From a virus (lineage: Duplodnaviria > Caudoviricetes): a DNA stretch of 52,337 nt. Each line of letters starts with the position of its first letter. Position 1 is the stretch's first letter. The stretch lies in IMG/VR virus record IMGVR_UViG_3300035199_000755, positions 1 through 52,337 of that record; one strand, 5' to 3'. A model generated the notes under the pieces. The model worked only from the letters and a program-made list of their open reading frames with translations. It did no database searches and had not been told where the DNA came from. Position numbers and translations under genes: made by a program. Below, in pieces: positions 1,770 to 37,908 of the stretch.

Positions 1770-2136
1770 TCACTTTTGCATAATTTAAATCACGTTTTGT
1801 TACGTCATTAATATCATGGGTATATACCGTGATTGCAACATTCAGATCACGTATGACCTGCAATCCGTGGTGGCCAGAGGCTTGCTGATATCGTAATAAC
1901 TCGCCTAAAAATCCGACAAGGGATTCAGCGTTTTGAAACTCGTACTGTCTTTGTAGTTCGTTTCTGCCACCTATATTAACCTGCTTCCACTTAAACGATT
2001 TTACTGTTACAGGAAGATCATCATTCGATTTATTAATCGGAAGATCCATCACTTTTTCTAGCGAATTTTTATATAGCATTTGCTCACTATGAACATTTTT
2101 ATTCAGTGTAGTCATATGTTCAAGCAACGATTCCAT
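1729..2136 (-). CDS. pterin-4-alpha-carbinolamine dehydratase (PCD/PhhB) family protein
   Basis: LQRQYEF...GFL...ASGHHG...V.ITVYTHD..DVT.RDLNYA..SD matches the PCD pattern (HH and TH histidines). Confidence 0.75.
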   Translation of the reverse strand: MESLLEHMTTLNKNVHSEQMLYKNSLEKVMDLPINKSNDDLPVTVKSFKWKQVNIGGRNELQRQYEFQNAESLVGFLGELLRYQQASGHHGLQVIRDLNVAITVYTHDINDVTKRDLNYAKVSDQIYNQVSYVRR

Positions 2137-5255: not shown

Positions 5256-5804
5256 CTACGCTGGTAATTTACCGGCACCGACAGCTAAGGGAGATAGGGG
5301 CTCTGGAGTATAGTTGCCAGTGGGGCTAACATTATACTGGGACTCTAATAAGTCTCTTAAGCTCTCTGACGAAGATTCATCATAGTTTTCTTTTATGTAA
5401 TTTAATGCCCGTGTTATTATAACCGTTCTTACATCTAGAAGGTTCTCGTGATTGTCAACGAGACGAGCAACATTCGCAGCAAATTCATTCAAATTCAACG
5501 GAGCCTTATCGGGTTTAGTAGGTTCAGATACATCAACGTCTTCAGATCCTTCCGTGTTAGCATCTGGTTTATCTGTTTCATCGGTGGAAGCTTCTTCGGT
5601 GGAAGCTTCTTCAGCCTCTTGTTCGAATAAAAATTGTAATGATGAAATAAGCGAATATTTTTCTTGTACAACAGTAGATTCAGATTCAAAGTTAATTAAA
5701 ATAGAATCAATTTGATCGTCAACGGATACCGTTGATAGTCTTTGACTCGTTTCCGTCAATACGTTTTGTATTAATGATCTTAGGTATTGCTTTGTTAAAA
5801 TCAT
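5256..5804 (-). CDS. hypothetical acidic protein (possible virion-internal protein)
   Basis: 182 aa, N-terminal MILTKQYLRSLIQNVLTE motif, acidic linker. Confidence 0.7.
   Translation of the reverse strand: MILTKQYLRSLIQNVLTETSQRLSTVSVDDQIDSILINFESESTVVQEKYSLISSLQFLFEQEAEEASTEEASTDETDKPDANTEGSEDVDVSEPTKPDKAPLNLNEFAANVARLVDNHENLLDVRTVIITRALNYIKENYDESSSESLRDLLESQYNVSPTGNYTPEPLSPLAVGAGKLPA
5581..5610. repeat. 15-bp tandem duplication TCGGTGGAAGCTTCT x2 (EEAST x2)
   Basis: Read directly; in frame within the acidic linker. Confidence 0.9.
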
Positions 5805-6439
5805 TTTAGCGCCTTTACCATATTCTCAGTTTTTACGAAACGTTTTTCTATAATACGCCAATTTAATTCCCGCATCATATTAGTAATGTACGCTTTTCTA
5901 TTATTGAGATAGTCTTTGCCGTACACTCTAGGCGATACATTTATAACGATTATAGGATGACAGCCGACGGGAACACCTTCACTATCACCATCGAGAGTTA
6001 CATTGATATAGCGTTGTAGAAAACTGCTAAAAATTGTGGCACCCCAGCCAGCGCGAGAGGCCATACAAGCAGCTATAAAATCCTTTTGCCAATCATCAAA
6101 AGTTCCGAAATCTCGAGTAAGTCTTAAATACGATAACGAATCCATGGATAGCTGAGAATTTGGGTCGGCTATATTAGAGAAATATAATTGACTAAGATAT
6201 ATTCCGTTCATGTTATTTATGAAATCTAAACTTAGGTCTCTGTACTCGCCACCCAGTGGCGTTGCGTTCATCCTATCTGCCACGTCTAGTTTGGCACTTG
6301 TCGTATTGAACATGTCTATTTGTGCCTCATAGCACTGTAACATAACTGTTTTTTGTTGAGCAGACAATAACTCTGTGGAAAGACTATACTGTTTCGGGCT
6401 TGCAACGAAGGATTCTTTAAGGTTTTTTTCTTGTGGCAT
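5801..6439 (-). CDS. Fe/Mn superoxide dismutase-fold protein with metal ligands substituted
   Basis: DFGTFDDWQKDFIA...GW...PIIVINVSPRVY..DY.NNRKAYI....LNW matches the SOD C-domain; DVWEHAY is replaced by NVSPRVY. Confidence 0.8.
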   Translation of the reverse strand: MPQEKNLKESFVASPKQYSLSTELLSAQQKTVMLQCYEAQIDMFNTTSAKLDVADRMNATPLGGEYRDLSLDFINNMNGIYLSQLYFSNIADPNSQLSMDSLSYLRLTRDFGTFDDWQKDFIAACMASRAGWGATIFSSFLQRYINVTLDGDSEGVPVGCHPIIVINVSPRVYGKDYLNNRKAYITNMMRELNWRIIEKRFVKTENMVKALK

Positions 6440-6804: not shown

Positions 6805-7245
6805 TTATGACACAAGTTGACTAACATCAACCGCTGCCGTCCTTAATACATCAAGACCTGTATGGTCTCTATAATCGTCTAAATAAATAACCCTATTTAT
6901 CCCAGAGTTCACTATGCACTTTGCACAATGTTCGCATGGAAGTGTCGTAACATACATAATTTTTTCTTTCTGGATATTATAATCAAGTTTCAATAACGCA
7001 TTTATTTCAGCGTGAATAAATCCACTTTCGCCGGGTTTTATGGACTGAACCTTGTTTTTTCCCCCTTTATAGTTACCGTTATATCCTAACGCAAGTACTT
7101 GTGTATTATCAAAAGTAACAATTACTGCGCCTACCTTTCTCCTGGGGTCTACAGACCTATTGGCTATAAGAAGTGCCATTGACATCCATATATCGTCCCA
7201 CAAAGGTCTACCATTTTCATCTCTACGCAGTTGCATTTTATTCAT
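6805..7245 (-). CDS. dCMP deaminase
   Basis: KVGAVIV, GYNG, HAEINAL and PCEHC zinc motifs. Confidence 0.93.
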   Translation of the reverse strand: MNKMQLRRDENGRPLWDDIWMSMALLIANRSVDPRRKVGAVIVTFDNTQVLALGYNGNYKGGKNKVQSIKPGESGFIHAEINALLKLDYNIQKEKIMYVTTLPCEHCAKCIVNSGINRVIYLDDYRDHTGLDVLRTAAVDVSQLVS

Positions 7246-7798
7246 AATCTACTTTATTCATCAACGGATGGTGTTTCCAGCACCTTGGTTCGTATTTATC
7301 AGAGCCACCTATAGATATAATATTTCCATCTTCAACTTTTTTATACGTATACTGAGCATCTGATCCGCAGACTGTACAGACGGCATTACATTTTTTAACA
7401 ATGGTAGCGTATGGTAACATCGATGATATCTCTTCAAACGGCTCGCATCCGGAAGATAAATCTAGTGTACTAACGACAATATCTTTACCGTGTTTATACA
7501 AGAAAATTAATGATTCGGCTATTCCATCGACCATAAACGCTTCGTCAACAGCAACAACGTCTATACTGGATTTAGCGTCTATCAAATGTTCTATAATATC
7601 ATTCCCATTAACAATTGTCTTACACGGAACTGCTGTTCCCGAATGCGTTACAATTTCTTTATGGGCATATCGTGCATCAATTTCTGGTTTAAATACCGCG
7701 GTGGTTTTTCCCTGGTAATGACATCTATCAAGATAATTTAAAAATCGTGTGGTTTTTCCGCTAAACATTGGACCACAATATACAATAAATCCAGCCAT
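7238..7798 (-). CDS. tdk: thymidine kinase (TK1 type)
   Basis: GPMFSGKT P-loop, VDEA, C-x2-C zinc site, IGG.DKYEPRC. Confidence 0.95.
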   Translation of the reverse strand: MAGFIVYCGPMFSGKTTRFLNYLDRCHYQGKTTAVFKPEIDARYAHKEIVTHSGTAVPCKTIVNGNDIIEHLIDAKSSIDVVAVDEAFMVDGIAESLIFLYKHGKDIVVSTLDLSSGCEPFEEISSMLPYATIVKKCNAVCTVCGSDAQYTYKKVEDGNIISIGGSDKYEPRCWKHHPLMNKVDYE

Positions 7799-8832
7799 TA
7801 TGCTCCCAATAAAATGTGGGTGGAACTCTCTGTTTGTCCAGCCGTTGTTTGTCTAATAAACTTTGCGCGAGTTTGGAGCTCTGTGATATTTCGAGTACCC
7901 GAATATGATAAACCAGATACTAAACCATTGCGTAAATCCCTTAAAATATTTTCTACTGGCCCTTTATAGTTTATAAACGTCGAAATTCCTTCATTCGATG
8001 AGTATTTTCCCCGCCATTCCACTTGAGCTTTTTTACTCGCCATTCCACGATATTCTTTTTTAACGCCGTGTTTTGTAGTTACTTTTTCACCGGGAGACTC
8101 GTCTGTTCCCGCAAGTAAAGATCCTAACATAACAAAATCTGCTCCGGCTGCGAGGGCTTTTACGATATCGCCGCTTGTACGGATTCCTCCATCGGCGATG
8201 ACCCTTGCATCGCGATCTGATTTAGCACAGTCAAATATTGTCTGTAGGCCTGGTACACCATGACCCGTCTGAACCCTCGTAGAACATATCGATCCCCCTC
8301 CTATATTACATCGAACGCTATCGGCACCCCAATCAGATAATTCATTAAATCCTGTGAGCGTCGCAACGTTTCCTGCCATAATATGCACATCGAAACCTAA
8401 CTCTCGTCTAATGGCAGAGATGGCATCTTTAACCAGCGCATGATGGCCATGGGCAACATCAACGCAGATAACCCTCGCGCCTGCTTTAAACACACTTACT
8501 GCACGCTCTAAATAATTGGTAGTTACTCCTATCGCAGCCCCTATAAGACCATTTCCAGACGCCCGGACGGCATCAGATACAAGAGTTACCTGTTGTTCGA
8601 TGGTGTTATACCTATGAATAATTCCTAACCCACCCATTTTAGACATTTCCACAGCCATTGAAGTACCGGTAACAGTATCCATAGGGGCTGACACAATAGG
8701 TAAGCTTAATTCGTGATTATTATCCAACGCATTACCAACGTAAACCTCGTTTCGACTTTTTATGTCTGAATACTGGGGTACTAGTAATACATCACTATAC
8801 GTTAACGCAATTTCGATATTTTTATATTCCAT
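7798..8832 (-). CDS. IMP dehydrogenase / GMP reductase family, no CBS domains (GMP reductase favoured)
   Basis: [23 protein letters not shown] catalytic Cys, [20 protein letters not shown]; flap has KY instead of the IMPDH RY dyad. Confidence 0.9.
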
Positions 8833-8838
8833 AATATC

Positions 8839-9117
8839 TCATTTATCTTCCAAAAATATTTTTGAGCGGTTGCTTATTTTAATTGTATCCAGTTTTTGTG
8901 ACCTTGTCATTTTTTTAAACGATATTTCAGCAATCTGTGCGGCTGATCTATCAGTAAATTTGACAGTGTATATAACCTTTACTGGCCTACGAGATCTAGT
9001 ATACTTAGCGCCTTTCGAAGATGTATTGTGTTCATTTATCCTTCTATTTATATCCGTTGTTATTCCCGTATATAAAGTATCATCACTGCACTGCAACACA
9101 TAAAGACACCAGGACAT
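8839..9117 (-). CDS. GIY-YIG nuclease (short YhbQ-like)
   Basis: LYVLQCSDDTLYTGITTDINRRINEHN...GAKYTRSRRPV. Confidence 0.92.
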   Translation of the reverse strand: MSWCLYVLQCSDDTLYTGITTDINRRINEHNTSSKGAKYTRSRRPVKVIYTVKFTDRSAAQIAEISFKKMTRSQKLDTIKISNRSKIFLEDK

Positions 9118-9122
9118 ATTAA

Positions 9123-10109
9123 TTACCTCTTAAAAACATGGTATCCGTTAAATGACGTGGATCGTACCAGCGATTTACATAAATCCTTATATCCCAGCTT
9201 CGCAGCTCTGTGGGATGCAAGAATTAATGCCCAGTCTTTCCAGTACCCATCCGGAGAATAGGTGGTCACCAAAGCTTTTATTTTATTCACATCAGATGTG
9301 TTTCTTAAAGCCTCCTGAAATACATCTAAATGCTCGAACCTGGAAAACACGCACTTGGGCATTTTCGGCATTGGATCCCATACGCTCTTATTGTTCGATT
9401 TACCATTTAAAATTTTATTGCACATACTAAAATGTCTCTTATATACGTGCAAACTATTACTCATGTGTGTATATGAACCAAGACCAACATCAAGTTCCTG
9501 CGCAAGCTTTTCCTGAAACAATGTAAATGCTGGCACGTCATACGTTAAGCCGAATATGAGATCAGATGACCTCATGTTTACGATCATATGTAACTTATTT
9601 TCTCTGATAAAAAACTGAAGTGTCAAAGTACAAGGAACGTCTTTTTTATCTAAGTTATCACGTGGCGATTTCACGTGAACCACAGCTCTCCTAGAATCTG
9701 GATCCCTAGAAAGTTCATTCAACACAAATTGCCACTGGGAATTATCGCCTACTTTTAGTGTATCGTACATTGATGTTCTTGGATGAGGCTTAAAAATTCT
9801 TGCGCCGTATGCTGAATTTGCAGTTACACCGTCATCAGAAATATCAGACCAGAATGACGAATAGTTAGAAATCCAATCAGTCTTATTATCTCCAATAAAG
9901 TACCATACAGCTTCAGCTATTGTATACCCCAGCGAAGTATTTCTTTCTGGAACATATAATAGTCTATTTCTCGGGTTCGTTATACGAAATGATACGCCAA
10001 GAGATTCTTTGACCAGCATCCCACGTGGACTTGATACATATTCCGGTGATGTATATACACGATCTATTAAGTCATAAAAGCACTCTGTAAATGATTCGTA
10101 TGTTTTCAT
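9123..10109 (-). CDS. thymidylate-synthase-fold dCMP hydroxymethylase-like (cytosine-modifying) enzyme
   Basis: AYGARI, DPDSRRAV, DVPCT (catalytic Cys), MRSSDLIFGLTYD with Asp at the ThyA N177 position, SLHVY; ATG at 10109 overlaps the upstream stop (TAATG). Confidence 0.85.
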   Translation of the reverse strand: MKTYESFTECFYDLIDRVYTSPEYVSSPRGMLVKESLGVSFRITNPRNRLLYVPERNTSLGYTIAEAVWYFIGDNKTDWISNYSSFWSDISDDGVTANSAYGARIFKPHPRTSMYDTLKVGDNSQWQFVLNELSRDPDSRRAVVHVKSPRDNLDKKDVPCTLTLQFFIRENKLHMIVNMRSSDLIFGLTYDVPAFTLFQEKLAQELDVGLGSYTHMSNSLHVYKRHFSMCNKILNGKSNNKSVWDPMPKMPKCVFSRFEHLDVFQEALRNTSDVNKIKALVTTYSPDGYWKDWALILASHRAAKLGYKDLCKSLVRSTSFNGYHVFKR

Positions 10110-11035
10110 TAAAGTCCCCACCAATCAAACGTCATTTTTAATCCTGTTTCAAAATTTACGATCGGCTTATACCCTAGTTCATCGCTTATTTTTTTAACGT
10201 CTGCCAATGTGTGCATTACATCTCCTTCTCGCGCTGGAGCACTACGAACATCAATATCGTTAAATCTTTGTTCAAAATACGATAAAATTTCATTGTTTGA
10301 TACGCTGGTACCCGTTCCGACGTTATAACACGCACCTTCGAATGTTTTCTTATGGTTTGCAGCTAAAATATTTGCGTAAACTACGTTATCAACATGGACC
10401 ATATCCCTTGTCTGTTCACCGGTGCCATCAGACCTCAAATATCGACCATCGGCAATGGCATTACACCAAGCAGAAATCGCTGTACTGTATGGTGAATTTC
10501 CGTATTGATTACCACCAAAAACGTTAAAATATCGTAAACAAACCGCATCGAAATCATAAAGCTTACAAAATAACTGTATAAATTGTTCACAACATGACTT
10601 TTGTAACGCGTATGGAGATTCTGGACTATGAATATTGAGTTCTGGTGTTGGTAAATTACTGGCATCACCGTAAACAGAGCTGCTAGAAGCAAAAATAAGC
10701 CTATCGATATTCCCTCTACAGGCTTCCAGTAACTTAACGGTCTTCATAACATTATCGTCAGTCGTTTGGGCAGGATTTTTAACTGAATATGCTACACGTG
10801 GATTCGCGGCATGATGAAACACGATATCGAATTTTCCCTGCCTAACAAGACTGAGGACACGTTCTGACGCAAAACAAACCCAGATCTTCTTTATATCACA
10901 ATTTTCAACAAAACTTTTATGACCGTTTGATAAATCATCGACACACGTAACGTCCCATCCATCTTTTACAAGCTGTAACACCAAGTTCGATCCTATGAAT
11001 CCAGCACCACCTGTAACAAGAGCCCTTCTTTTCAT
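10109..11035 (-). CDS. NAD-dependent nucleotide-sugar 4-epimerase (extended SDR; candidate UDP-xylose 4-epimerase)
   Basis: TGGAGFIGS, ASSSSVYG, SPYALQK (YxxxK), LRYFNVFG, QTRD.VHV. Confidence 0.88.
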   Translation of the reverse strand: MKRRALVTGGAGFIGSNLVLQLVKDGWDVTCVDDLSNGHKSFVENCDIKKIWVCFASERVLSLVRQGKFDIVFHHAANPRVAYSVKNPAQTTDDNVMKTVKLLEACRGNIDRLIFASSSSVYGDASNLPTPELNIHSPESPYALQKSCCEQFIQLFCKLYDFDAVCLRYFNVFGGNQYGNSPYSTAISAWCNAIADGRYLRSDGTGEQTRDMVHVDNVVYANILAANHKKTFEGACYNVGTGTSVSNNEILSYFEQRFNDIDVRSAPAREGDVMHTLADVKKISDELGYKPIVNFETGLKMTFDWWGL

Positions 11036-11044
11036 TATATACTC

Positions 11045-12106
11045 CTATAAATTTAAAAATGCTTCTCGACCTGTTTTAGCAACATCTTCCAAAAAACTAG
11101 CTGCAAATTCAACACTAAAATCGTATTTTGACATGAGCGCCATCTTTTGTTCCTGAATTATTTCACTACGTTGCTCAAACGTAAGTTTCGATAACTTAAC
11201 GACGTTAGAAATAACGTCAACTTCTGAGGATACACACCACTTTTTTCCAAGAATGTCGTTCACCAAAAACTCTTCAGGAACCATACCGGGTGTGCCTACA
11301 ACAATGTTTTCAAAATATCTCGCAGTTACAAACCCCTGGTGCGAGTATCTATCTTTTGTAATATGCGTTGTGCAAATAAATTTGCTTAACTTTACCATAG
11401 ATTCATAGAAAGATACCCTGTCACAGAATGATACAAACTTGCTGTTTTTTATTAATTCCTCTGGAGGTGGCCGCTCTGGGGAACGTTGTAGCCAGTTTCC
11501 CCATACTTTCGATTGTATTCCACGATGACGTAATCCCTTTGCAACGTTGGAATAATACTTCGAAAACTGATATTCTCTCTCATAATTGTTTCCAACGTAA
11601 CCATATTCTGGTAGAACATAATCTGGTTTTATAAGTTGTTTAAAGTCGGTCCAGAACATGAACGAACGACGGGGTAACGTAAATTCGCAAGGCTTAAATG
11701 TCGGTTCTACGATAAGCATTTCTGGCCACTGCTTTTCATCATTAGATGTAATTTTTAAATCGGCATCCCAAACAATAACCGGTATTTTACCGTGATAATA
11801 ATTTAGTAACTCAAGCTGTCTATCATAATCTGGTTCAAATTTCGCTGGACCATAATTTTTATAAGTTGGCCAACGCCATTCAATAAACAACAAATCTAAA
11901 TCTGGGAAACGACTATCCGCGTATATCAATCCTGGGTATGCAATTTGCTCCCTCTTTTTTTGCATAGAGTATACAACGTGATTTCTATCTAAAAGTTCCT
12001 GCACCAATAGGGGCCTACCGTACCTATGACCGTCAGGTGTATTGGCAGTTTTACATTGATCGAACGATTCACAAAATCCCCAATAACTGATACCGATATT
12101 AGACAT
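11045..12106 (-). CDS. GT-B glycosyltransferase resembling T4 DNA beta-glucosyltransferase
   Basis: WDADLKI, YGYVGNNYERE, VWGNW and FVTARYFE...GMVPEEF align by eye with T4 BGT FTDIRL, IYGGSFRSGQRE, FFGNA and FITLRVWE...MLIDEEF. Confidence 0.75.
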   Translation of the reverse strand: MSNIGISYWGFCESFDQCKTANTPDGHRYGRPLLVQELLDRNHVVYSMQKKREQIAYPGLIYADSRFPDLDLLFIEWRWPTYKNYGPAKFEPDYDRQLELLNYYHGKIPVIVWDADLKITSNDEKQWPEMLIVEPTFKPCEFTLPRRSFMFWTDFKQLIKPDYVLPEYGYVGNNYEREYQFSKYYSNVAKGLRHRGIQSKVWGNWLQRSPERPPPEELIKNSKFVSFCDRVSFYESMVKLSKFICTTHITKDRYSHQGFVTARYFENIVVGTPGMVPEEFLVNDILGKKWCVSSEVDVISNVVKLSKLTFEQRSEIIQEQKMALMSKYDFSVEFAASFLEDVAKTGREAFLNL

Positions 12107-12634
12107 TTATTTTTCCTCCACAAAATCTAAAATTTCAGTTAATTCTCTATCTAAATTTTCATCATCGACATTTAACGATAAAACGTCGCACGAAGTCCAA
12201 CTTTTAAAATTTTCATAACCGTTATGAACGCTATTTAAAAATGACTCATCAATAATATCAAATTGGTCAATAACGTTATTATAAAAACTCCTGTGTAAAA
12301 GTACTATCTTTACAGACATTTGCTTACACATCGTATCAATAGATTTTAATACATTAAAATCTGTTTCTCGACCGCACATGGGGCCGTACACATACTCTGA
12401 CGGATATGCCCTGTCGAGTATAACGGACGTATTAGTTTGTTGAATAAACTCAAGTAGATAGGGTAACGAGTATTTTGTGGTATTTAAAAACCATGTACCT
12501 TCATCAAGTTCTTCAAAATGTTTCCATTCACCAGCGCTTTTAAACACCGGTATCGATAATTTTTTACTCAGGGCATTTGCGATATTCGTTTTACCACACC
12601 CATCTGGTCCTTCAAGTATTATAACTGTCGTCAT
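12107..12634 (-). CDS. dNMP kinase (thymidylate-kinase-like; candidate modified-dCMP kinase)
   Basis: IILEGPDGCGKT P-loop, ILDRAYPSEYVYG. Confidence 0.85.
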   Translation of the reverse strand: MTTVIILEGPDGCGKTNIANALSKKLSIPVFKSAGEWKHFEELDEGTWFLNTTKYSLPYLLEFIQQTNTSVILDRAYPSEYVYGPMCGRETDFNVLKSIDTMCKQMSVKIVLLHRSFYNNVIDQFDIIDESFLNSVHNGYENFKSWTSCDVLSLNVDDENLDRELTEILDFVEEK

Positions 12635-13728
12635 TATTCTAACTCCGTAGATACTCTTTTTAAGGATGAAGCAATTACTTGATCCATGTCATAATACTTG
12701 TAATCAGCTAGTCGACCACCAAAGACATAGTTTGAAAGTTTATCCGCTTCATTTTTGTATAGCTTAAACAACTCATTGTTTCGTTTATCGTTTATGGGAT
12801 AATACGGCGTTTTACTTCGTGTATATTCGACCGGTGTCTCAGTTGTTACGACCGTCTTCTTTGACTTTACCCCGTCAAAAAACTTATGTTCGATTGTTCT
12901 TGTGTGGGGTACATCAATAGAAGTATGATTGATTGTTACGACGCCTTGAAAATTCTCGGTGTCGTGGATCTTATGATCGAACCTCAATGCTCTATACTCT
13001 AAATCGCCATATTCATAACCAAAAAATTCATCCAATTTACCCGTATAGACAACCTTGGTAGCAATACTCTCGAAATACTTACGATCAGAAAAAAAATCCA
13101 CATCGAACTCAATCGGAATACCATCAAGCAGCTTATCAAATATTTTTGTATAGCCCCCAATTGGAATACCACAAAATTTATCGTTATAATAATTTGCGTC
13201 GAATGTTAACCTAAATGGTAGGCGCTTAATAATAAAACTAGGTAGCTCACTTGGATGTTTCATCCAGTGTTTTTCTGTATATCCACAAATTAACTTTTCA
13301 TAGACGTCCTTTCCTAACGCCGACAAAGCAAATTCTTCGAGGTTTTTTGGATTATCAAAATGAACCCTCGTTTCTTCTATTTTTTGAAGAGCCTCCGCTG
13401 GAGTTTTTACACCCCACAACTGATGAAACGTCCACATATTAAATGGTAAAGAATAAAATTCATCGTGATATTTCGCAATCGGAGAATAAATAAATTGCTT
13501 AAATTCTACTAGGTTATTTACATATTTCCATATTTTATCGCTGCTGGTGTGAAATATATGGGGACCATATACATGAACGTTTACCCCTTCAACGTTTTTT
13601 GTGTATGCATTCCCACCAATGTGAGGACGTTTTTCTAATACTAAACATTTTTTTCCATTTTTACTTGCCTCGTGAGCAAAAACTGACCCAAAAAATCCTG
13701 CGCCAACGATTACGTAATCATACATCAT
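12634..13728 (-). CDS. glf: UDP-galactopyranose mutase family flavoenzyme
   Basis: IVGAGFFG FAD motif, HIGGNAY, YGPHIFHT, YSLPFN, RTIEHK, PYYP, GRLADYKYYDMDQ. Confidence 0.95.
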   Translation of the reverse strand: MMYDYVIVGAGFFGSVFAHEASKNGKKCLVLEKRPHIGGNAYTKNVEGVNVHVYGPHIFHTSSDKIWKYVNNLVEFKQFIYSPIAKYHDEFYSLPFNMWTFHQLWGVKTPAEALQKIEETRVHFDNPKNLEEFALSALGKDVYEKLICGYTEKHWMKHPSELPSFIIKRLPFRLTFDANYYNDKFCGIPIGGYTKIFDKLLDGIPIEFDVDFFSDRKYFESIATKVVYTGKLDEFFGYEYGDLEYRALRFDHKIHDTENFQGVVTINHTSIDVPHTRTIEHKFFDGVKSKKTVVTTETPVEYTRSKTPYYPINDKRNNELFKLYKNEADKLSNYVFGGRLADYKYYDMDQVIASSLKRVSTELE

Positions 13729-14710
13729 TACCTAATATACCCTTAAAATATTTTATTGTTTTAACTAATCCCGCCTCTAAGTCTATTTTAGGATACCACT
13801 CAAGATATTTCACAGCTTTATCTATATTCGGCCTTCTTTGTGTTGGATCATCAACGGGTAAGGGTTTGTAGGTTATCTCTGACGTCGATCCCATCAATTT
13901 CTTTATCATCGCTGCAAGCTCGATCATCGTATGCTCAGTCGGATTGCCGATATTAATAGGGGTTGAGCAAGAAACATTCGTTAAGTTCATTAATGAAATA
14001 AGGCCGCGGATTTGATCATCTACATAGCAAAAACTACGTGTTTGTTTTCCGTCGCCGAACATCGTTATATTTTTATTGCGAAAACATTGATATATTAAAT
14101 TACTAACGACTCTGCCATCATCTGGATCCATATAAGGACCGTATGTGTTAAAGATTCTTGCGACTCGAATATCCAACCCTTCTGTCCTAGCATAATCATA
14201 GCATAACGATTCAGCCGCCCTCTTTCCCTCATCATAACATGCTCGAGGACCTATGGAATTCACATTCCCACGATATTCTTCTCTTTGTGGATGCAATAAT
14301 GGATCACCGTATATTTCCGACGTAGAAGTAAAAAGCAATCGAGCGTTATACCTCAAAGCAAGTTTACATACGTTATTTGTTCCAACAACCGATGTTAACA
14401 TTGTCTTTATTGGATCCTGCTGATACTTTGGGGGAGATGCAGGACAGGCAAGGTGATATATCTGGTCAACTCCGTCAGGAAAGTGGCGTTTAACAAGTAT
14501 ACTATTAGAAATCTGAGGTGATGTTACATCATCGCTAAAGTACCTAAAGCGATGATCCGTAAGGGCCAATTGTTTAACTTCATTATATCGATTATTGGTT
14601 GAAAAATTATCTATGCAGACGACCTTATTAACTGGTCCCTCTAATAATTTTTTACATAAATTCCACCCTAAAAAACCTGCTCCACCTGTTACAATAACAT
14701 TAATTCCCAT
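13718..14710 (-). CDS. uxs: UDP-glucuronate decarboxylase (UDP-xylose synthase)
   Basis: YHLACPASP, TSTSEIYGDP..HPQ.E.Y.GNVN.IGPRACYDEGKR, DDGRVVSN, QTRSFCYVDD, DDP..RRP. Confidence 0.93.
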   Translation of the reverse strand: MGINVIVTGGAGFLGWNLCKKLLEGPVNKVVCIDNFSTNNRYNEVKQLALTDHRFRYFSDDVTSPQISNSILVKRHFPDGVDQIYHLACPASPPKYQQDPIKTMLTSVVGTNNVCKLALRYNARLLFTSTSEIYGDPLLHPQREEYRGNVNSIGPRACYDEGKRAAESLCYDYARTEGLDIRVARIFNTYGPYMDPDDGRVVSNLIYQCFRNKNITMFGDGKQTRSFCYVDDQIRGLISLMNLTNVSCSTPINIGNPTEHTMIELAAMIKKLMGSTSEITYKPLPVDDPTQRRPNIDKAVKYLEWYPKIDLEAGLVKTIKYFKGILGNDV

Positions 14711-14716
14711 AACATT

Positions 14717-14745
14717 ATTATAATTCAGGAGGCCGCTTTAGTACA
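14717..14745 (-). promoter_or_regulatory. sigma70-like promoter TGTACT-N17-TATAAT driving the uxs operon
   Basis: Consensus -10 at 14717-14722, 6 nt before the ATG; no SD, so probably leaderless. Confidence 0.6.
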
Positions 14746-14759
14746 ACCGAATCTCTATG

Positions 14760-15833
14760 TTAATTCATTCCACCGAACAACGTAAGCGCTATAAGGCCCG
14801 GTGCTTTATCATTGATATAGATTCCAGAAAACAGCGTCTGAGTTCTACCACCTACATAAGACATAGCAGATTCTAATCGCTTACTAACGTCTGGATTTGA
14901 TGCCATATCAGATGTAACAAGCAATAACAACACACCCGTCTCAGGATTGTTTGTGGGTGCAAGACACGGAGATCCTCTTAAACACCCCTGGAATACAATC
15001 GAGCCTAAGTCTAATGATGATGGATCCTTTACTACGGTGCTACCCAGGAACATACGTCCGTTGGTGCTTAAGCACCTTTCAAGATCCTTTGAATCAAATG
15101 TTTGAATTTCTGAGCTCTGAGCTGCGAATTTTAGCACCTGCCAGAATAGCTTCGCAAATGTCATGTTTGCGGCAGGATACATGTTTAACATTCCGACTTT
15201 ACCCCTAAGCAACTGTAACTGCTTCTCGTTATCAACAATGATGTGGGGATGGTTTCTAACATCGTTTAACACATTAGCGTAATTATTTCCGATAGTCGGA
15301 TTTAACAGTTCCTGCGCTGATGGTTTACTGACGATATACACAACTTTACCTGCGGCTCCAGACGATTCCATAAACCGCGACATACAACCATGAAGTGCAT
15401 GGGATGCGCTTCCTGTACCGCCGCCACCGCCGGCGAGGACGAATAACCAATCGACTTTTCCAAACCTCGCCCTTAAAGCGTCCTCAACCATAGCGCTATT
15501 TTCGCTTAAAATCTTCTTTCCCAGCTGAACATCTTTACCAACACCATCGGCGCCTGGTAACAGTAAGAAGTGCGCAGGATCCAAGCCACCTGGTTGATCC
15601 TTGGTTGTTGTATTTACCAAAAAAGTTTTTGTAAAACCTAAATCAAGAAATGCTTTGGCGAGCTTTCCGCCGCCTCCTCCGACGCCTAGAAAACCGCAAT
15701 TAATTGCTGATTGAGCTGAATTTTCCGGTAACATGCGTTCATCTTGGGCTGTCGGTTCATCATCATAATTTCCTAAGAAATCAAAATCATCATCGACTGG
15801 ATTAATATACGCATCATCATTGCCTGTACTCAT
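14760..15833 (-). CDS. tubulin/FtsZ-family GTPase (PhuZ-like)
   Basis: GVGGGGGK, VNTT..D, GVGKD..LG, GGGGGTGS signature, VDN, FDSKD T7-like loop; AGGAG SD. Confidence 0.85.
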   Translation of the reverse strand: MSTGNDDAYINPVDDDFDFLGNYDDEPTAQDERMLPENSAQSAINCGFLGVGGGGGKLAKAFLDLGFTKTFLVNTTTKDQPGGLDPAHFLLLPGADGVGKDVQLGKKILSENSAMVEDALRARFGKVDWLFVLAGGGGGTGSASHALHGCMSRFMESSGAAGKVVYIVSKPSAQELLNPTIGNNYANVLNDVRNHPHIIVDNEKQLQLLRGKVGMLNMYPAANMTFAKLFWQVLKFAAQSSEIQTFDSKDLERCLSTNGRMFLGSTVVKDPSSLDLGSIVFQGCLRGSPCLAPTNNPETGVLLLLVTSDMASNPDVSKRLESAMSYVGGRTQTLFSGIYINDKAPGLIALTLFGGMN

Positions 15834-18746: not shown

Positions 18747-21700
18747 TCACTCGTCAATGGGACGAAGCAGCATCTCGTATTTTCTCCCTGTGATATTATT
18801 TATCACGCACAGGTAATCTCTTTCCTCAACAATTGTCCAATTTCCTCGTTCATTTCGAAGATGTAGGTCTCCTGTGTATATATTGGCAAATCTTTTATCA
18901 ATAGATCCTAAATTATATGTTACGTCTGCGGCCGGTAGGATATGATTTTCTACGTAGGTCGAGCCGCTAATAAATAAATCACCACCAAAAACAGCAGTTC
19001 CGCGTGTGGATGTATCTTTAGATCCGATAGTACCCGAAACGTAAAAGTTTACATCAGATTTACTAGCTTCATCCGCTGATGCTGCGGCACCACCCGAAAG
19101 AATTAGAACCTGGTCTGTACCACCGTTAGCAAAGATGGCGTGGGTTTTCCCGTTGGTCTCGACCCTAAAGTCTACATCGGCACTGGCCTCGTTAAAGACA
19201 ACTTCATCTCCGGCTTCGGCCTCAATAGTAATTTTACCGGCTGCGTCCAGATTGATGTCACCGTCTGCGGTCACCGTGAAATTCGCCGCGCTAGCGCCCT
19301 GGTCGCTGGTGGTCAGGGTGGTCGTACCGGACTCTCCAACTGAGATCTTGAAATGATCGAGTAGATTATCGGGCGAGCGAGCTATAAAATGAGTCGAGTC
19401 GTTGGGTGATGTAACATCAATCCCGATGTTGGTGTCCGCACCGGTCAGGTTGATGGCTAACCCCTTCAACGCTTGAACACCCGATGTCCCACCGGTCATT
19501 CGAATATCAGCACCGGTAGCATTGACTGTACCTACATGGGTAGGAGCATCTTGGTTGTAATGGACAGCGATCGCATCATGATAGGCTGTCTGACCGGATG
19601 CAACTATGCCAGTCACATCGTAATCAACCGTCAATCCGGTCGCGTCGGTACCACCTGAGGCCAAGCTGCCCACGTCTGTGGTTCCTGTGTAATTCTTATC
19701 TATCTTTATGGCCGGGTGAGCGCCATCGTCGCTCCGATCTGCAGTGAGTGTTCCTGATACGACTGTGTCACCACCGAAAACAGTTGTTCCTTTCACTGCA
19801 GAATCTTTAGATCCAACAGTACCTGATACAAAGAAGTTAATATCTGTTGATTGTTTGGGTTGCATTGAACTAGCAGCAACGGCTGAACCAGATAGTAATA
19901 TTACTTGTCTATTACTAGATCCCCAATAAGAACCCAGTCTTAGAATTTCCTCTGTTGATGATCCGTTGTGCGTCTTAAACACTAGGTCATTTGAAGAGCT
20001 TAAGTGCATCATCGCTCCGATTGCACCTGCAGACCCTGCAAACTCTATCGATGAATTATTTGCGTTGTTACTTCTCTGTATTCTTACTGTTGGAGAAGAA
20101 TCTTTAACGTGAACTGTCGTGGCAGGGGAAGCACCGGTCGAGCCTATTCCAAGCCGATCATTTCCGGCATCGACAAAAAGCATATGTGTGTTATTGACTG
20201 ATTCAACTCTGAAATCTACATCTGCGGCTTGTTCATTGAACGTTGCGGCACCATCAGAGCCCAGAACTATATCAGCATTTGCAACTGCTGTGGCACCTAT
20301 GATTACTGTTTCAACGCCAGAACTATCAGACGGATACAAGAACGAGCCGCCGTCAGTCCACTCGCTAGATCCACCGCCACCAGAGGATGTAATAGTAACC
20401 TGACCGTTTGAAGCAGATGTGATTGTAACGTTAGAACCCGCGACAAGATACGGGAGACCACCCGATGTATGATGAATCGATCCCGAAATTGTTCCGCCCT
20501 GCTCGTAAAGCCCCTCGCCGACGATAAGAGAGCCACTAACAACCACATCGCCCATAAACACGGACGACGCTTCACCTTGTCCGTCAGACTCTCCAGTACC
20601 CTGGTGTCCTATCGCACCACTAACAACAAATTTGATTCCGCTGGCAACGTTTTCTGGAGATCCAAAATCGACCTGCCAGTGACTGCTTCCATCATCCTCT
20701 GATGGACCCACAACCAAGGCTCCTGACACGACGGTATCTCCACCTAAGAGAATGGCTCCGTTACCGCCAAGGCCTACGCCGTCGCCTTGGAGACCCACAC
20801 CATTAACACCTGATATGAACGTATGTACGTTCGTTCCTACTTTGTCTCCCAACGGTGAACCAAGATAAACAGTTCCGCTAACCACTACGTCTCCACCAAA
20901 AAGCGCTGCTCCCCGAGTGCCTTGGCCTTGGCCGCCAATCGTACCGGAAACGTAGAGCGCAATATCAGCCCCTGTTGCTTCATTCGTTGATGACGCAGCA
21001 CCGCCTGAGAGTATCAAGACTTGATCTTGGTCACCATCGACAAAGATGGCAGCCTTATTATTAGAATTAACAGTAAAGTCCCAACCTTGACTGGAGTAGT
21101 CGAATATTACGTTACCCTTAGTCCTAATTTCTCCCTGGGGTGTGTATAGAGAGAGAGCATTGGCACTTTGGTCCCATAAGACATAATTGTTCGTCGTTTC
21201 TCCGTAGACCTGGAAATCTACACCGGCTTTGTCCTCGCCTAATGTTAACTTGCCTCGTTCATTGGCATCAGCGTCCCAATGAAAAACAGCTCCTTCACCA
21301 CCGGCGTCAGTTTGCGTGTTGTAAAGTTTAACATCCTGCCCGGAGCCTGAAACCCCTACTTCAAGACCACCGCTAAGAACCAAATCACCGCCGAAAACAG
21401 CTGTTCCTCTTGTACTTGAATCTTTAGAACCTATAGTTCCTGACACGTACAGGTTTACATCAGAGCCGTTGTAATCAGATACCCTCTCGGTACCGATCAT
21501 CGATAGGTAAGTTGTTCCAGTAACGACTAGGTCACCCTCAATTACCGCTGTGTTCTTACTCGAACCCGCAAGCTTCGATCCCGCGGTTCCCGATACGTGA
21601 AAGAAAACATCATTCGATGCAATACCCACGTTTGGGCCTGCGTTCGAAGAACTTTTGCCTACCCTGTCACCAAGATAAACAAACGATGCGGTAACTATTG

Positions 21701-32640: not shown

Positions 32641-32699
32641 GCTGCTCCGTTGCACATTCTATAAAATAATAAAAATAAATAGATTGTGAGTAAATGTAT

Positions 32700-36218: not shown

Positions 36219-37211
36219 TCATCTTGCTTCTCCTTCGCCGCAGCCTGATTCTTCTGGGATATAAACCCATTTAAATGTTTGATCCCCGATTCCTGAATGG
36301 GATATTTTTCTGTCAATAATAACATGCATAATGTTTGTTGGTATTTTTCTAATCTTTTTTAAGAATCTTTTCGTGTGTCTATACGGTTTATCCCATTTCC
36401 TTGTTAGCAATATAAACCTTGTATAATATCGATCAGTTTTTGATTTAAAATATTTCCACGTAATATCCGTCCAGTATCCATACCCAGCATCGGAAAAAAT
36501 AACTTTTACCAAAGGTTGGGGGGATCTGTCGTAAAGCCAGTCCATACCACCAGACCTAGATATTGACATTAGTGCACTTCCGCCTGCACTGTGACCTATC
36601 AATATAAAGTCTCCGAAATTAAATTTACAATGACCATATTCAGCGCACTGATTTCTTCTTACGGGAGATGGGTCAAAAAGTGTAACTATAATTTTCACAA
36701 CTGAACTTATGAAAGTAGAAAACTGGTGCTTTCCAGTAAACACACGGCCTTGCCTAGATTTTGGAGTCGATGTATGCTTAGACCATGGCATCTCTGGAAT
36801 CACAATAATAAAATTTTTGTCCTGTTCTTTGAAACTTTTTGTGTGCCTCAAGACTCTTGTACGGAAATCCCTCTCCTTAAATCCTCCTAGACCGTGAAAA
36901 TAAAGTATCAAATCAATAGGCTTATCAAAGCTTGTATTTTCTGGAACGAAAATAATGGTATCCCTTGCTTTGTTTTTATGTTTAGGATCTTTATAACCAT
37001 TTCCCATAATTGGTGCGATAAATGTCGCACCCCTAACCGTAGTGTTGTTTTTTGTTAGTTCATAATAAACCGTTTTCCATGTTGAAACCGTTTTATGGTA
37101 TGAACCGCTCTCTGTTACGAGGATTTCTTTAACGTTTACATTATCCGCTGCGGTGGCTGGACTGTATAAAAGTAAGCATAAAACAAATATATTAACTGTT
37201 TTTTTCACCAT
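36219..37211 (-). CDS. secreted alpha/beta-hydrolase-fold protein
   Basis: Signal peptide, LYFHG oxyanion motif, GHSAGG nucleophile elbow, SD and SH candidate triad residues. Confidence 0.7.
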   Translation of the reverse strand: MVKKTVNIFVLCLLLYSPATAADNVNVKEILVTESGSYHKTVSTWKTVYYELTKNNTTVRGATFIAPIMGNGYKDPKHKNKARDTIIFVPENTSFDKPIDLILYFHGLGGFKERDFRTRVLRHTKSFKEQDKNFIIVIPEMPWSKHTSTPKSRQGRVFTGKHQFSTFISSVVKIIVTLFDPSPVRRNQCAEYGHCKFNFGDFILIGHSAGGSALMSISRSGGMDWLYDRSPQPLVKVIFSDAGYGYWTDITWKYFKSKTDRYYTRFILLTRKWDKPYRHTKRFLKKIRKIPTNIMHVIIDRKISHSGIGDQTFKWVYIPEESGCGEGEAR

Positions 37212-37908
37212 TTTTAATTTCTATATAAGATTTAACCGTCTCTGGAAATAATTTCTGCGCAATTTCCAAACAAGCTTTTGCGACCTGCTGTATTTCCCAT
37301 TGTGCTCCTTCGTGACTACGGAGATCTATAAATTTAAGCAAGTTATTTAGATTGCATGTTCCGTAATACTCCGTATAAAGATTTTGAGGTAGCGCACCTC
37401 TTGCCTGTTCTCTACAAACACCCAGCTCCAAAAGTTTTTCATAAACGTAAAGAGAAGCGTCGTGGTGTTGCTGTAGAAATTCAGAGGCACGGATCGGAGC
37501 TTTTGCTACCTCTAGCTCAGGGTCGAACCATTCATCGATACTGGCTTGACGATTAGATTCACTTTGCTTCCTAAACTTTATGGGTTTATAAAATTCTAAA
37601 TTAAAATTTGTATAACGTCTGCTAATCTCATTGTACGACCAGGTTCTATGACGATGGTGCTGCGATCTTATGAACAACGGAACCTTAAACCTAAATGTTA
37701 CTGCACAGTGCTCTAGTGTGGATGTATGTCTATGATTTATTAAATAGCGAATAAGTCGTTTATCAGCGTCCGAGAGACTTGATACGTGCTTACCAAAACT
37801 GACACGAGCACTATTAACAACTGTAACGTCAGAACCCATATGGGAAACATACTCAACAAAACCAATGTTGTCTGAATATATGTCAATTTTTTTCTCCAGC
37901 TTTTCCAT
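37192..37908 (-). CDS. thyX: flavin-dependent thymidylate synthase
   Basis: VNSARVSF, H.S.LEH, RHRTWSYNEISRRY, REQARG.LP, HAQWEI-like GAQWEI. Confidence 0.96.
   Translation of the reverse strand: MEKLEKKIDIYSDNIGFVEYVSHMGSDVTVVNSARVSFGKHVSSLSDADKRLIRYLINHRHTSTLEHCAVTFRFKVPLFIRSQHHRHRTWSYNEISRRYTNFNLEFYKPIKFRKQSESNRQASIDEWFDPELEVAKAPIRASEFLQQHHDASLYVYEKLLELGVCREQARGALPQNLYTEYYGTCNLNNLLKFIDLRSHEGAQWEIQQVAKACLEIAQKLFPETVKSYIEIKNGEKNS

Follow-up and report, generated by a model that had tools for sequence, protein, structure and literature searches.

A jumbo-phage gene cassette predicted to glycosylate 5-hydroxymethylcytosine with a phage-tailored sugar donor

Several phage systems that glycosylate cytosine have been described. 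In T4 the pathway has a pre-replicative and then a post-replicative stage, relies on the hydroxymethylase gp42, the kinase gp1 and the beta-glucosyltransferase (BGT), whose gene (b-gt) lies near gene 42, and draws on UDP-glucose from the host. RB69, DLP3 and their relatives make arabinosyl-5-hydroxycytosine (5hoC) and Rhizobium phage RL38J1 makes galactosyl/glucosyl-5hoC, from clusters with the order kinase, glycosyltransferase (GT), thymidylate synthase (TS) homolog and with their own genes for NDP-sugar synthesis; among those of RL38J1 is a UDP-galactopyranose mutase, proposed to form UDP-Galf for glycosylated cytosine (accessible portion of PMC13326640, including its Table 1). The C5-methyltransferase/TET phage clusters combine a 5hmC DNA GT with an epimerase supplying its donor; 5hmC is formed on the DNA, with Hex, HexNAc and HexA demonstrated as products; xylose, arabinose, furanose, mutase and decarboxylase are words that occur 0 times in the accessible text (bioRxiv 10.1101/2023.12.21.572611). 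Outside phages, a route to UDP-L-Araf through a UDP-GlcA decarboxylase, a C4 epimerase and an FADH2-dependent mutase, in that order, has been proven in Campylobacter jejuni HS:15, a bacterium which has its own UDP-Glc dehydrogenase and feeds the sugar to its capsule (PMC10615251, accessible portion).

We analysed a stretch of 52,337 nucleotides (the window), which represents about a fifth (~20%) of the genome of a jumbo phage that is uncultured, encodes a DnaE-type polymerase and is unrelated to T4. The cassette of interest consists of six minus-strand genes spanning 9123-14710, all in the same orientation and joined by junctions of -11, -1, 0, +9 and -16 bp, in that order; the first is the overlap of uxs and glf, and the last is due to the TTG start of the TS homolog, lying within the epimerase gene. 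Base composition (GC and GC3) is uniform throughout the cassette, the UXS gene included. The tight packing of six co-oriented genes given in a preliminary description was thus found as stated. The tight array does not end at 9123, however: it continues for seven further genes, namely GIY-YIG, an IMPDH-like gene, thymidine kinase (TK), dCMP deaminase and three other ORFs, whose successive gaps are +5, +6, -1, -8, -26, -23 and -4. Nor could we recover the single promoter that had been proposed. A promoter scan returned 26 sites, where chance alone predicts 26.1, with none on the minus strand within the 49-bp gap that precedes uxs, a TATAAT hexamer ~8 nt before the uxs ATG being the sole promoter-like element visible.

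Table 1. Genes of the cassette and other genes of the window that bear on its reading.
Predicted product	Position	Strand	Basis
UDP-glucuronate decarboxylase (UDP-xylose synthase, UXS)	13718..14710	-	human UXS1 structures
UDP-galactopyranose mutase family enzyme (Glf/UGM), FAD-dependent	12634..13728	-	TIGR00031, PF03275
Small P-loop Tmk-like nucleotide kinase; putative hmdCMP kinase	12107..12634	-	phrog_761
GT-B glycosyltransferase, T4 beta-glucosyltransferase homolog; putative DNA (5hmC) GT	11045..12106	-	profile-profile
GalE-like NAD-dependent nucleotide-sugar 4-epimerase	10109..11035	-	PF01370
TS-fold dCMP hydroxymethylase, predicted 5hmdCMP synthase	9123..10124	-	PF00303, active-site signature
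Thymidine kinase, conserved module companion	7238..7798	-	PF00265 7.5e-40
dCMP deaminase, conserved module companion	6805..7245	-	PF00383 4.9e-21
ThyX flavin-dependent thymidylate synthase	37192..37908	-	PF02511 6.2e-49

The TS homolog matches PF00303 at 91.9 bits. Unlike T4 gp42, it has the long, MilA-like form (333 aa), and MilA is its best solved relative (E 2e-43). Residues W80, R126, D143, C146, S167, D169, G173 and D177 are those of gp42, an identical active-site signature that was also present in 11/11 relatives examined. According to the accessible portion of PMC13326640, N177D and L143D/E mark cytosine use and non-methyl products and D169N is diagnostic for 5hoC synthases, a diagnostic that depends on the set of enzymes tested in that single paper. 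Because the gp42 signature is present and the D169N mark absent, the TS homolog is predicted to make 5-hydroxymethyl-dCMP (hmdCMP). Moreover, the window encodes a separate ThyX to cover dTMP, leaving the TS-fold homolog free of that task. Alternatively, the base could be 5-hydroxycytosine, the one made by RB69, DLP3 and RL38J1, or the enzyme could act on dUMP or CMP rather than dCMP. Indeed, MilA is the best structural match of the 5hoC synthases too (PMC13326640, Table 1, in the part accessible), and the kinase-GT-TS order is theirs. However, the 5hoC synthase RB69 gp48 differs from the window's enzyme by D169N, W80A and G173V, uracil specificity is excluded by D177, and R126/S167 are of the deoxyribose type, unlike K133/A176 of MilA (PMC5175136, accessible part). 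We consider such a base or substrate very improbable, and the 5-hydroxy-C alternative of the preliminary description is disfavoured because D169 is retained.

The adjacent kinase matches phrog_761 ('thymidylate kinase') at 1.2e-16, its Pfam dNK and Thymidylate_kin matches falling under the cut-off. It is weakly similar to RB69 gp45 (24% identity, E 8e-7) and, being Tmk-like, differs from the T4 kinase gp1. In RB69 and DLP3, the 5hodCMP kinase is a gp1-type dNMP kinase and not the Tmk-like gene of the cluster (PMC13326640, accessible portion), a precedent that counts against assigning hmdCMP to the window's Tmk-like kinase.

The GT, called BGT at the outset, has no match of its own sequence in Pfam, PHROG, NCBIfam or PDB; both PF09198 and PF13524 missed it, although PF13524 was matched by 17/35 close and 39/78 distant relatives. 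The homology to T4 BGT appears at the level of profiles: hhalign of a 78-sequence GT profile against an 8-sequence BGT family gave 98.6%, E 7.2e-16 over 309 columns. In this alignment R78, R177, R263 and E266 pair with BGT R102, R195, R269 and E272, so that (near-)invariant Arg/Glu residues occupy the UDP-binding positions of BGT. BGT Asp100 is aligned with Glu76, which is retained in just 41/78 of the wider relatives. The window GT is, as judged from these profiles, a full-length homolog of T4 BGT that has diverged beyond detection by PF09198 or tblastn, and its gene lies close to the TS homolog, as b-gt does to gene 42. Members of the family come almost exclusively from phages (1 fragment among 185,579 species genomes). 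The family HMM matches the b-gt ORF of VPE25 at 7e-18, and similarity to the RB69 GT pieces gp46 and gp47 was not detected. From homology and invariant synteny, we infer that this enzyme is a DNA (5hmC) glycosyltransferase.

The three sugar enzymes could be assigned with differing precision. UXS aligns with human UXS1 structures over residues 5-324 (E 9e-96, 324 bits, the next-best family reaching just 121 bits) and shares with human UXS1 the motifs STSE.YGD and YDEGKR; its closest non-self homolog, at 81% identity, lies on a 228,420-base contig. Glf scores 383 bits against TIGR00031, above the equivalog cut-off of 303.75, and matches PF03275 at 4.6e-67 and structure 1i8t at E 5e-131. The epimerase matches PF01370 at 2.2e-48 and retains the S124/Y149/K153 triad, with Thr at the E. 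coli Y299 position; at 180 bits it stays under the 262 cut-off of TIGR01179 galE. Its best structural relatives are 6dnt, WbgU and WbpP, which we take to be UDP-HexNAc epimerases. Family and structure matches thus uphold the identities first proposed for UXS, Glf, the Tmk-like kinase, the GalE-like SDR and the TS-fold homolog.

We compared 91 loci encoding GT relatives, 32 of them well flanked (4 kb on both sides of the GT). In the latter the GT is accompanied by the kinase, which adjoins it, in 32/32, by the TS homolog in 32/32, by dCMP deaminase in 31/32, the epimerase in 28/32 and TK in 26/32. UXS and Glf are each found in 3/32, and they occur together in 0/91. These counts point to a conserved core with swappable sugar genes: kinase, GT, hydroxymethylase and 4-epimerase form a conserved, putative hmC-glycosylation core of uncultured jumbo phages, found in many aquatic phage contigs, to which the window's lineage has added UXS and Glf as accessory 'donor-tailoring' genes. 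The expectation that the sugar genes accompany the TS homolog and GT therefore had a mixed outcome, holding for the epimerase but in only a few relatives for UXS or Glf. Among deposited phages, Bacillus phage G has the closest TS homolog (gp319, 36% identity, matching signature), which lies near sugar-nucleotide genes, a dCMP deaminase and an annotated alpha-glucosyltransferase. In Enterococcus phage VPE25 a TS homolog bearing the hydroxymethylation signature is accompanied by a dUTPase, TK and an annotated b-gt. Both differ from the window: neither locus has UXS, Glf or epimerase, and the GTs come from different families or subfamilies.

Relatives that lack UXS still have the epimerase as part of the core, so UDP-xylose was not the substrate for which it evolved; together with the kinship to 6dnt, WbgU and WbpP, this makes a hexose or a HexNAc no less natural a substrate than UDP-xylose. 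The hmC module may accordingly add a hexofuranose, with host UDP-Glc converted to UDP-Galp by the epimerase and to UDP-Galf by Glf to yield Galf-5hmC, xylose then serving an unseen second GT or another glycan. Consistent with this, three loci (L011, L012 and L147) have Glf and the epimerase without UXS, the entire L012 record has no UXS ortholog, Glf clears the cut-off for UDP-Galp mutases, and RL38J1 offers a published parallel. The 11-bp overlap of UXS and glf within one array of uniform composition speaks against it, as does the failure to find a second GT within 52 kb. Moreover, UXS recurs with the window's own GT subgroup (L077, L080, L084 and L088, with an 86%-identical relative as a likely further case) in relatives devoid of Glf, which argues for a UDP-xylose-derived donor in these GTs. 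A galactofuranosyl product thus appears unlikely.

Glf joins the TS homolog and a member of the GT family in three separate lineages (the window; L011/L012/L147; L064/L066). UXS, Glf and possibly the epimerase could also remodel a host or virion glycan, in which case the GT would, like that of T4, glycosylate hmC from an ordinary UDP-sugar of the host. Viral contigs widely carry UXS or Glf away from any TS homolog or GT: the TS homolog is next door in 0/24 UXS loci and only 2/30 Glf loci, and a GT relative was present in 0/5 Glf-bearing virus records. On the other hand, the sugar genes overlap inside a nucleotide-metabolism array, the threefold joining of Glf with the TS homolog and GT and the recurrence of UXS by the kinase-GT pair tie them to the module, and published phage DNA GTs need a partner epimerase (bioRxiv 10.1101/2023.12.21.572611, accessible text). 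We regard this glycan-remodelling role as quite improbable.

We therefore prefer to read the cassette as a T-even-type pre- and post-replicative cytosine hypermodification pathway with sugar supplied by UXS, epimerase and Glf, a reading to which, taken as a whole, we give a probability of roughly 0.55. The hypermodification module first proposed is supported by the TS signature, the BGT homology and the 32/32 co-occurrence. As suggested by its active-site signature, the TS-fold enzyme would convert dCMP to 5-hydroxymethyl-dCMP, the adjacent Tmk-like kinase may phosphorylate hmdCMP towards the triphosphate, and the phage polymerase would build hmC into DNA, whereupon the BGT-homologous GT would move the sugar from a UDP-sugar to the hydroxymethyl group; in this phage, 5hmC would be made as a nucleotide and not, as in the methyltransferase/TET clusters, on the DNA. 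The donor would derive from host UDP-GlcA, passing through UDP-Xyl (UXS) and UDP-L-Arap (epimerase) to UDP-L-Araf (mutase), a route that employs all three enzymes most economically and has its precedent in the same three activities of C. jejuni HS:15 (PMC10615251, accessible portion). The phage differs from that bacterium in that the window has no ugd, DNA is the putative acceptor and the enzyme specificities are predicted. Within the fifth of the genome that the window covers, neither dCTPase/MazG nor a further GT turned up either, and these absences, with that of ugd, count against the reading.

For the sugar on hmC, we somewhat favour a pentose of some kind. L-arabinofuranosyl-5hmC is the leading guess for the DNA product, a purely inferred and tentative one; the presence of the epimerase core without UXS, the lack of any UXS and Glf pair in the 91 relatives, the FAD oxidoreductase and short SDR that take the Glf slot in UXS-bearing relatives, and a quick tree in which the window GT did not group with the GTs of Glf-bearing loci all count against it. 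RB69 and DLP3 obtain D-Ara from ribulose-5-phosphate via arabinose-5-phosphate isomerase, a kinase/uridylyltransferase and a phosphatase, none of which is in the window; for the window phage the predicted pentose is L-Ara, derived through UXS from UDP-GlcA and carried by predicted hmC instead of hoC. Independence from the isomerase route, as first claimed, is supported by the absence of SIS and NTP_transferase from the window. To call the system new was too strong, because kinase-GT-TS-homolog clusters with phage-encoded sugar-nucleotide genes, including the RL38J1 Glf, are in print (PMC13326640, accessible part). Where T4 draws on host UDP-glucose, this phage encodes enzymes that tailor the sugar nucleotide. 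By analogy, the modification likely shields the phage DNA from restriction and CRISPR nucleases, and if the reading is true, an unusual, probably five-carbon sugar on hmC would be a fresh take on a known anti-restriction strategy.

The cassette was searched for its gene boundaries, promoters and continuation. The six ORFs were found as a preliminary description had drawn them, with junctions of -11, -1, 0, +9 and -16 bp. The single promoter that it had placed ahead of them was not recovered: a scan for sigma-70-type promoters and for terminators did no better than shuffles, with 26 promoter sites where 26.1 were expected and none on the coding strand of the 49 bp that precede uxs. A TATAAT hexamer near the uxs ATG is the only promoter-like element visible. 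Nor does the compact array stop at the end coordinate of that description; it runs further downstream through genes for a GIY-YIG endonuclease, an IMPDH/GMP-reductase-like protein, thymidine kinase (TK) and dCMP deaminase and through another three ORFs, the gaps ranging from +5 to -26. At the DNA level, the cassette gave three short matches only (65-70%) in phages. Judged by composition, a foreign origin of uxs and glf was rejected, GC and GC3 being uniform across the cassette. CheckV rates the 52,337-base window, an entire IMG/VR virus record, as about 20% complete, thus the phage genome is probably larger than 200 kb. Almost all window genes are on the minus strand, and a tRNA scan found no tRNA genes in the window.

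Features of the window and of the related loci, with coordinates where available.
Feature	Locus	Position	Strand	Remark
uxs	window	13718-14710	minus	
glf	window	12634-13728	minus	
Kinase gene	window	12107-12634	minus	
Glycosyltransferase (GT) gene	window	11045-12106	minus	protein P0001
Epimerase gene	window	10109-11035	minus	
TS homolog (hm)	window	9123-10124	minus	
GIY-YIG endonuclease	window	8839-9117	minus	free-standing, between IMPDH-like and hydroxymethylase genes
IMPDH/GMP-reductase-like protein	window	7798-8832	minus	no CBS insert; PF00478 4e-104; kept at 48-54% identity in several relatives
TK and dCMP deaminase	window			
357-aa ORF	window	14760-15833	minus	directly upstream of uxs; weak tubulin/FtsZ similarity (Pfam Tubulin E 1.2e-3, under cut-off; TIGR00065 1.3e-5); may be a PhuZ-like jumbo-phage tubulin
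1840-aa ORF	window	18747-24269	minus	no PHROG match; in the stretch of highest GC (0.45-0.49; cassette about 0.38); the adjoining 557-aa and 355-aa ORFs likewise without family assignment
DnaE-type DNA polymerase	window	25107-28706		<30% identity to closest deposited phages
Ribonucleotide reductase	window			
DnaB-like helicase	window			
UvsX-like recombinase	window			
5'-3' exonuclease	window			
gp32-like protein	window			
HD phosphohydrolase	window			
ThyX	window			apart from the cassette
Auxiliary-looking genes	window	1729-2136; 5801-6439; 31660-32655; 35240-35671	minus	pterin-4a-carbinolamine dehydratase, Fe/Mn superoxide dismutase C-terminal domain protein, full DnaJ and Hsp20
Second GalE-like SDR and two ORFs	L008	11026-13722		commonest relative type; SDR at 140 bits to TIGR01179 (under cut-off); ORFs of 265 and 242 aa without family matches, between GT and core epimerase
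Oxidoreductase (364-370 aa) and SDR (214-219 aa)	L088; L080	7703-9471; 7722-9457		in the slot of the window's Glf
TS homolog with hm signature, Glf, 391-aa ORF, GT-family member	L064	9114-13385		distant viral lineage; same row in L066
DHH/DHHA1 phosphoesterase	L011; L088	13044-14454; 13669-14535		between module and dCMP deaminase; L011 additionally has an MT-A70 adenine methyltransferase; the window has neither gene at that place
gp319 region of phage G	L016	225436-242461		
BGT homolog (26% identical)	L157, uncultured phage LR756500 (462 kb)	141117-158181		TS homolog about 1.6 kb away, 38.6% identical to the window's; elsewhere in LR756500, a stretch 69.5% identical to window uxs DNA

The predicted glycosyltransferase, P0001 (353 residues), had been called BGT-like, and this was borne out by full-length homology at the profile level. 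Alone, P0001 found no match in Pfam, PHROGs or NCBIfam, and tblastn found none in 50,697 deposited phage records. Searches of PDB sequences with phmmer and a 35-sequence profile returned nothing useful; their TRAF6-like matches (E 0.36 and above) were dismissed as chance. PF09198 was matched neither by the protein, nor by the six-frame window at E<=10, nor by any of 78 relatives (0/78). A six-frame window search with PF13524 (Glyco_trans_1_2) gave no useful match; this family was matched by 17 of 35 close and 39 of 78 distant relatives. In a language-model atlas, clusters of both families were among the nearest neighbours of the protein, a lead only.

The homology became apparent when we compared P0001, by hhalign, with a family of eight BGT sequences (T4, AB1I1L, KMB26, Muldoon, STP4-a, CC31, VPE25 and LR756500). 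Against the single T4 sequence the result was 25% only, and the comparison carried conviction only once both partners were represented by family profiles. A 35-sequence GT profile aligned in its C-terminal half alone (93.6%), whereas the 78-sequence profile aligned over 309 columns (98.6%, E 7.2e-16), covering both Rossmann-like domains (residues 1-345 against BGT 1-351), and reached 99.5% in global mode. An HMM of the 78 sequences also matched the ORF annotated as b-gt in VPE25 (E 7e-18, the search space being small, at three loci). R102, R195, R269 and E272 of BGT correspond to R78, R177, R263 and E266 of P0001, which are kept in 78, 76, 78 and 77 of the 78 sequences, respectively; BGT R191 is aligned with Tyr175. 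We take Arg195, Arg269 and Glu272 to be UDP-binding residues of BGT and Asp100 to be catalytic. The latter is aligned with Glu76, present in 35/35 close and 41/78 wider relatives, and the nearly invariant Asp114 and Asp116 are alternatives to Glu76. No similarity was found between P0001 and the RB69 gp46 and gp47 pieces.

This protein has many metagenomic relatives: among 937 candidates, 189 clusters (90% identity) reached E<=1e-3, and an exhaustive profile search gave 403 clusters at 50% identity, 96 of them at <=1e-30. In metagenome contigs, 186 stretches were confirmed; a search of 185,579 species genomes gave one fragment only, at the contig end of a MAG.

We next consider the base. The TS homolog scored 91.9 bits to PF00303 (cut-off 24.3) and has the catalytic Cys at position 146 (E. 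coli ThyA numbering); among solved structures, the CMP hydroxymethylase MilA is its closest relative (E 2e-43). It was aligned with E. coli ThyA, T4 gp42, RB69 gp48, phage G gp319 and relatives. W80, R126, D143, C146, S167, D169, G173 and D177 are identical to T4 gp42, and D177 and D143 are found in the window and in 11/11 relatives. According to the excerpted text of PMC13326640, cytosine substrates are marked by N177D, replacing uracil, non-methyl products by L143D/E, through water access, and flavin-dependent 5-hydroxy-dCMP synthases by D169N, a tested diagnostic. At position 169 the window enzyme has Asp, whereas RB69 gp48 has Asn. The 5-hydroxycytosine that had been entertained as alternative base is thus disfavoured: a 5hodCMP synthase of the RB69 gp48 or DLP3 gp80 type is marked by D169N, and here Asp is kept. 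The ribo-CMP preference of MilA rests on Lys133 and Ala176, where deoxy-specific enzymes have Arg and Ser (PMC5175136, in excerpt); the window's Arg126 and Ser167 are the deoxyribonucleotide-type pair. Moreover, dTMP synthesis is covered by a separate ThyX. Because of D177, D143, D169, the Arg/Ser pair and this ThyX, the TS homolog is predicted to convert dCMP to 5hmdCMP.

The closest TS homolog in a deposited phage is gp319 of Bacillus phage G (36% identity). It has the hydroxymethylase/cytosine signature, and nearby lie genes for a dCMP deaminase, an annotated alpha-glucosyltransferase, a HAD phosphatase, a glucose-1-phosphate thymidylyltransferase and a DnaE-like polymerase, which together suggests that phage G DNA carries glycosylated hmC.

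The kinase, a P-loop protein of 175 residues, comes nearest to the phage 'thymidylate kinase' family phrog_761 and is weakly similar to RB69 gp45 (24% identity, E 8e-7). In the excerpts of PMC13326640, a gp45-type 'nucleotide kinase' adjoins the GT and the TS homolog in RB69, DLP3 and the Rhizobium phage RL38J1.

Gene order was compared in 91 loci with a GT relative (11 viral and 80 metagenomic; 83 distinct GT DNA sequences), and synteny was counted in the 32 whose GT is flanked by >=4 kb on each side. The kinase and the TS homolog are near the GT in all of them (32/32 each), dCMP deaminase in 31, the epimerase in 28, TK in 26, and UXS and Glf in three each, never together. This constant presence of the TS homolog is the sole pointer to the acceptor, and speaks for DNA as the substrate of the predicted glycosyltransferase. 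Among all 91 loci, UXS was found four times, Glf three times and both together in none. Thus, of the sugar genes proposed to accompany the TS homolog and the GT in relatives, the epimerase does so and the joint presence of UXS and Glf does not recur. The kinase, GT, hydroxymethylase and epimerase genes are a conserved core, which by its gene content is a predicted hmC-glycosylation module, and UXS and Glf are accessory donor-tailoring genes recruited independently by different lineages.

A typical order is DnaE polymerase, kinase, GT, hm, epimerase, TK and, further on, dCMP deaminase. In a second type, GT and epimerase are separated by an additional GalE-like SDR and two ORFs, which form another donor-tailoring cassette. 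In the Glf type (L011, L012 and L147) the order is hm, glf, GT, kinase, epimerase. In the UXS type (L077, L080, L084 and L088), UXS lies upstream of the kinase together with a FAD oxidoreductase of the DAO family and a short SDR; no specific family was found for the latter two, which as a pair could oxidise a UDP-pentose and reduce it again, epimerising it. Searches of whole virus records gave a UXS ortholog in 0/5 and Glf in 1/5 GT-bearing records, and a GT relative in 0/5 Glf-bearing records. A TS homolog was nearby in 0/24 viral UXS loci and 2/30 viral Glf loci; these two (L064 and L066) have a distant GT-family member two genes downstream.

Two contigs, 5,223 and 228,420 bases long, carry the nearest GT homologs (93% and 86% identical, respectively). 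A contig of 5,223 bases likewise carries the nearest Glf homolog (93%), and one of 228,420 bases the nearest UXS homolog (81%); among the best 120 Glf matches, none lies on a contig of the latter length. Equating contigs of the same base count, we infer that glf and GT are paired again in a near-identical phage; on the same equation, the 86% GT relative apparently has UXS and no close Glf. A GT tree of 70 rows was obtained by a quick maximum-likelihood search; 24 of the 91 loci stand outside it (HSP <900 nt, internal stop in the match, or translation identical to another row). The window's GT forms its own clade with P0002 and P0003, inside a weakly supported 30-row group (SH-aLRT 90) with all four UXS-bearing loci; GTs from the Glf-type loci group apart, in a long-branched clade of their own.

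As to the donor, gene 1 is, judged by sequence, a bona fide UXS-type decarboxylase. Its match to human UXS1 has 324 bits (E 9e-96), that to the next SDR family 121 bits, and it has in common with UXS1 the catalytic-region motifs STSE.YGD and YDEGKR; it reached no NCBIfam equivalog cut-off, the best models being other enzymes. The epimerase is GalE-like (TIGR01179, 180.4 bits, under the cut-off of 262.3) with the Ser/Tyr/Lys triad kept. In the window and four relatives it has Thr at the position of E. coli GalE Tyr299, which presumably plays a role in substrate size, and its best solved relatives, 6dnt, WbgU and WbpP, are enzymes that we take to be UDP-HexNAc epimerases. Glf exceeded the TIGR00031 equivalog cut-off (383.1 against 303.75 bits). 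To our knowledge, there is no sequence signature for the use of UDP-L-arabinopyranose by UDP-galactopyranose mutases. For such an activity of the window's Glf, the only precedent would be a homologous C. jejuni enzyme (PMC10615251, in excerpt). Three of the four families of the C. jejuni-type UDP-L-Araf pathway are in the window (UXS, 4-epimerase and mutase). In this window, about 20% of the genome, Ugd (PF03721) was not found at E<=1, nor were MazG, SIS or NTP_transferase; Ugd could be supplied by the host or by the remaining ~80% of the genome.

Several observations argue that UXS and Glf would serve the DNA pathway: in three lineages Glf is a neighbour of both a TS homolog and a GT-family member, UXS is found repeatedly next to the kinase-GT pair, and both genes overlap their neighbours in the window's single array. 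The only linear route employing all three sugar enzymes would be UDP-GlcA to UDP-Xyl to UDP-L-Arap to UDP-L-Araf, a route shown enzyme by enzyme with homologous families in C. jejuni HS:15 (excerpts of PMC10615251). An epimerase and Glf would by themselves specify a Galf route; since L-Ara is chemically to Gal as Xyl is to Glc, the addition of UXS would turn it into an L-Araf route. We consider Galf-hmC unlikely and a pentose of some kind on hmC somewhat more likely than not. The specific reading, to which we give a probability of about 0.35, is that the DNA sugar is L-Araf: cytosine would be replaced or decorated with L-arabinofuranosyl-5-hydroxymethylcytosine, through a UXS-epimerase-mutase route from host UDP-glucuronate and a phage-only branch of the BGT superfamily. 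Three facts argue for caution here: the epimerase is older than UXS in the family, the window GT lies outside the Glf-associated clade, and the partners of UXS differ in the UXS-bearing relatives.

Clusters of TS homolog, kinase and GT with phage-encoded sugar-nucleotide synthesis, and a phage mutase for glycosylated cytosine (RL38J1), are already in print (PMC13326640, in excerpt), as are GT and epimerase pairs acting on 5hmC (bioRxiv 10.1101/2023.12.21.572611, likewise in excerpt). The Thanatos work, on a T4-like phage, deals with a UDP-xylose pyrophosphorylase. Among the literature matches listed, none connects phage DNA with UDP-xylose synthase or L-arabinofuranose, and none beyond RL38J1 describes another mutase in phage DNA modification. 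The metaviromic TS homologs of PMC13326640 (Figs S10 and S11) could include relatives of the window's TS family. What appears new here is a previously unrecognised branch of the BGT superfamily, hmC rather than hoC as the predicted base in jumbo phages of a non-T4 lineage, and the putative donor route.

Glycosylated cytosines set which restriction, CRISPR and type IV systems can cut a phage, and these modified bases are also a source of enzymes for hmC mapping. The module adds an unannotated, predicted family of DNA glycosyltransferases, phage-only, with the 403 clusters found at 50% identity; it would also be the first case of a UDP-xylose synthase wired into a nucleobase pathway, and would extend T-even-style hmC chemistry to unrelated uncultured jumbo phages with DnaE polymerases. 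If the L-Araf reading is true, this would be the first L-pentofuranose on a nucleobase. As a part of that tentative reading, the module would belong to a large uncultured clade of aquatic jumbo phages in which the kinase-GT-hydroxymethylase core stays constant and the donor-tailoring cassette is exchanged; the core has been seen with no cassette, with a second SDR, with Glf, with UXS, FAD-oxidoreductase and SDR, and with UXS and Glf. These natural variants could reveal how donor specificity evolves in DNA glycosyltransferases, and the clade would then be a natural library of differently glycosylated DNAs.
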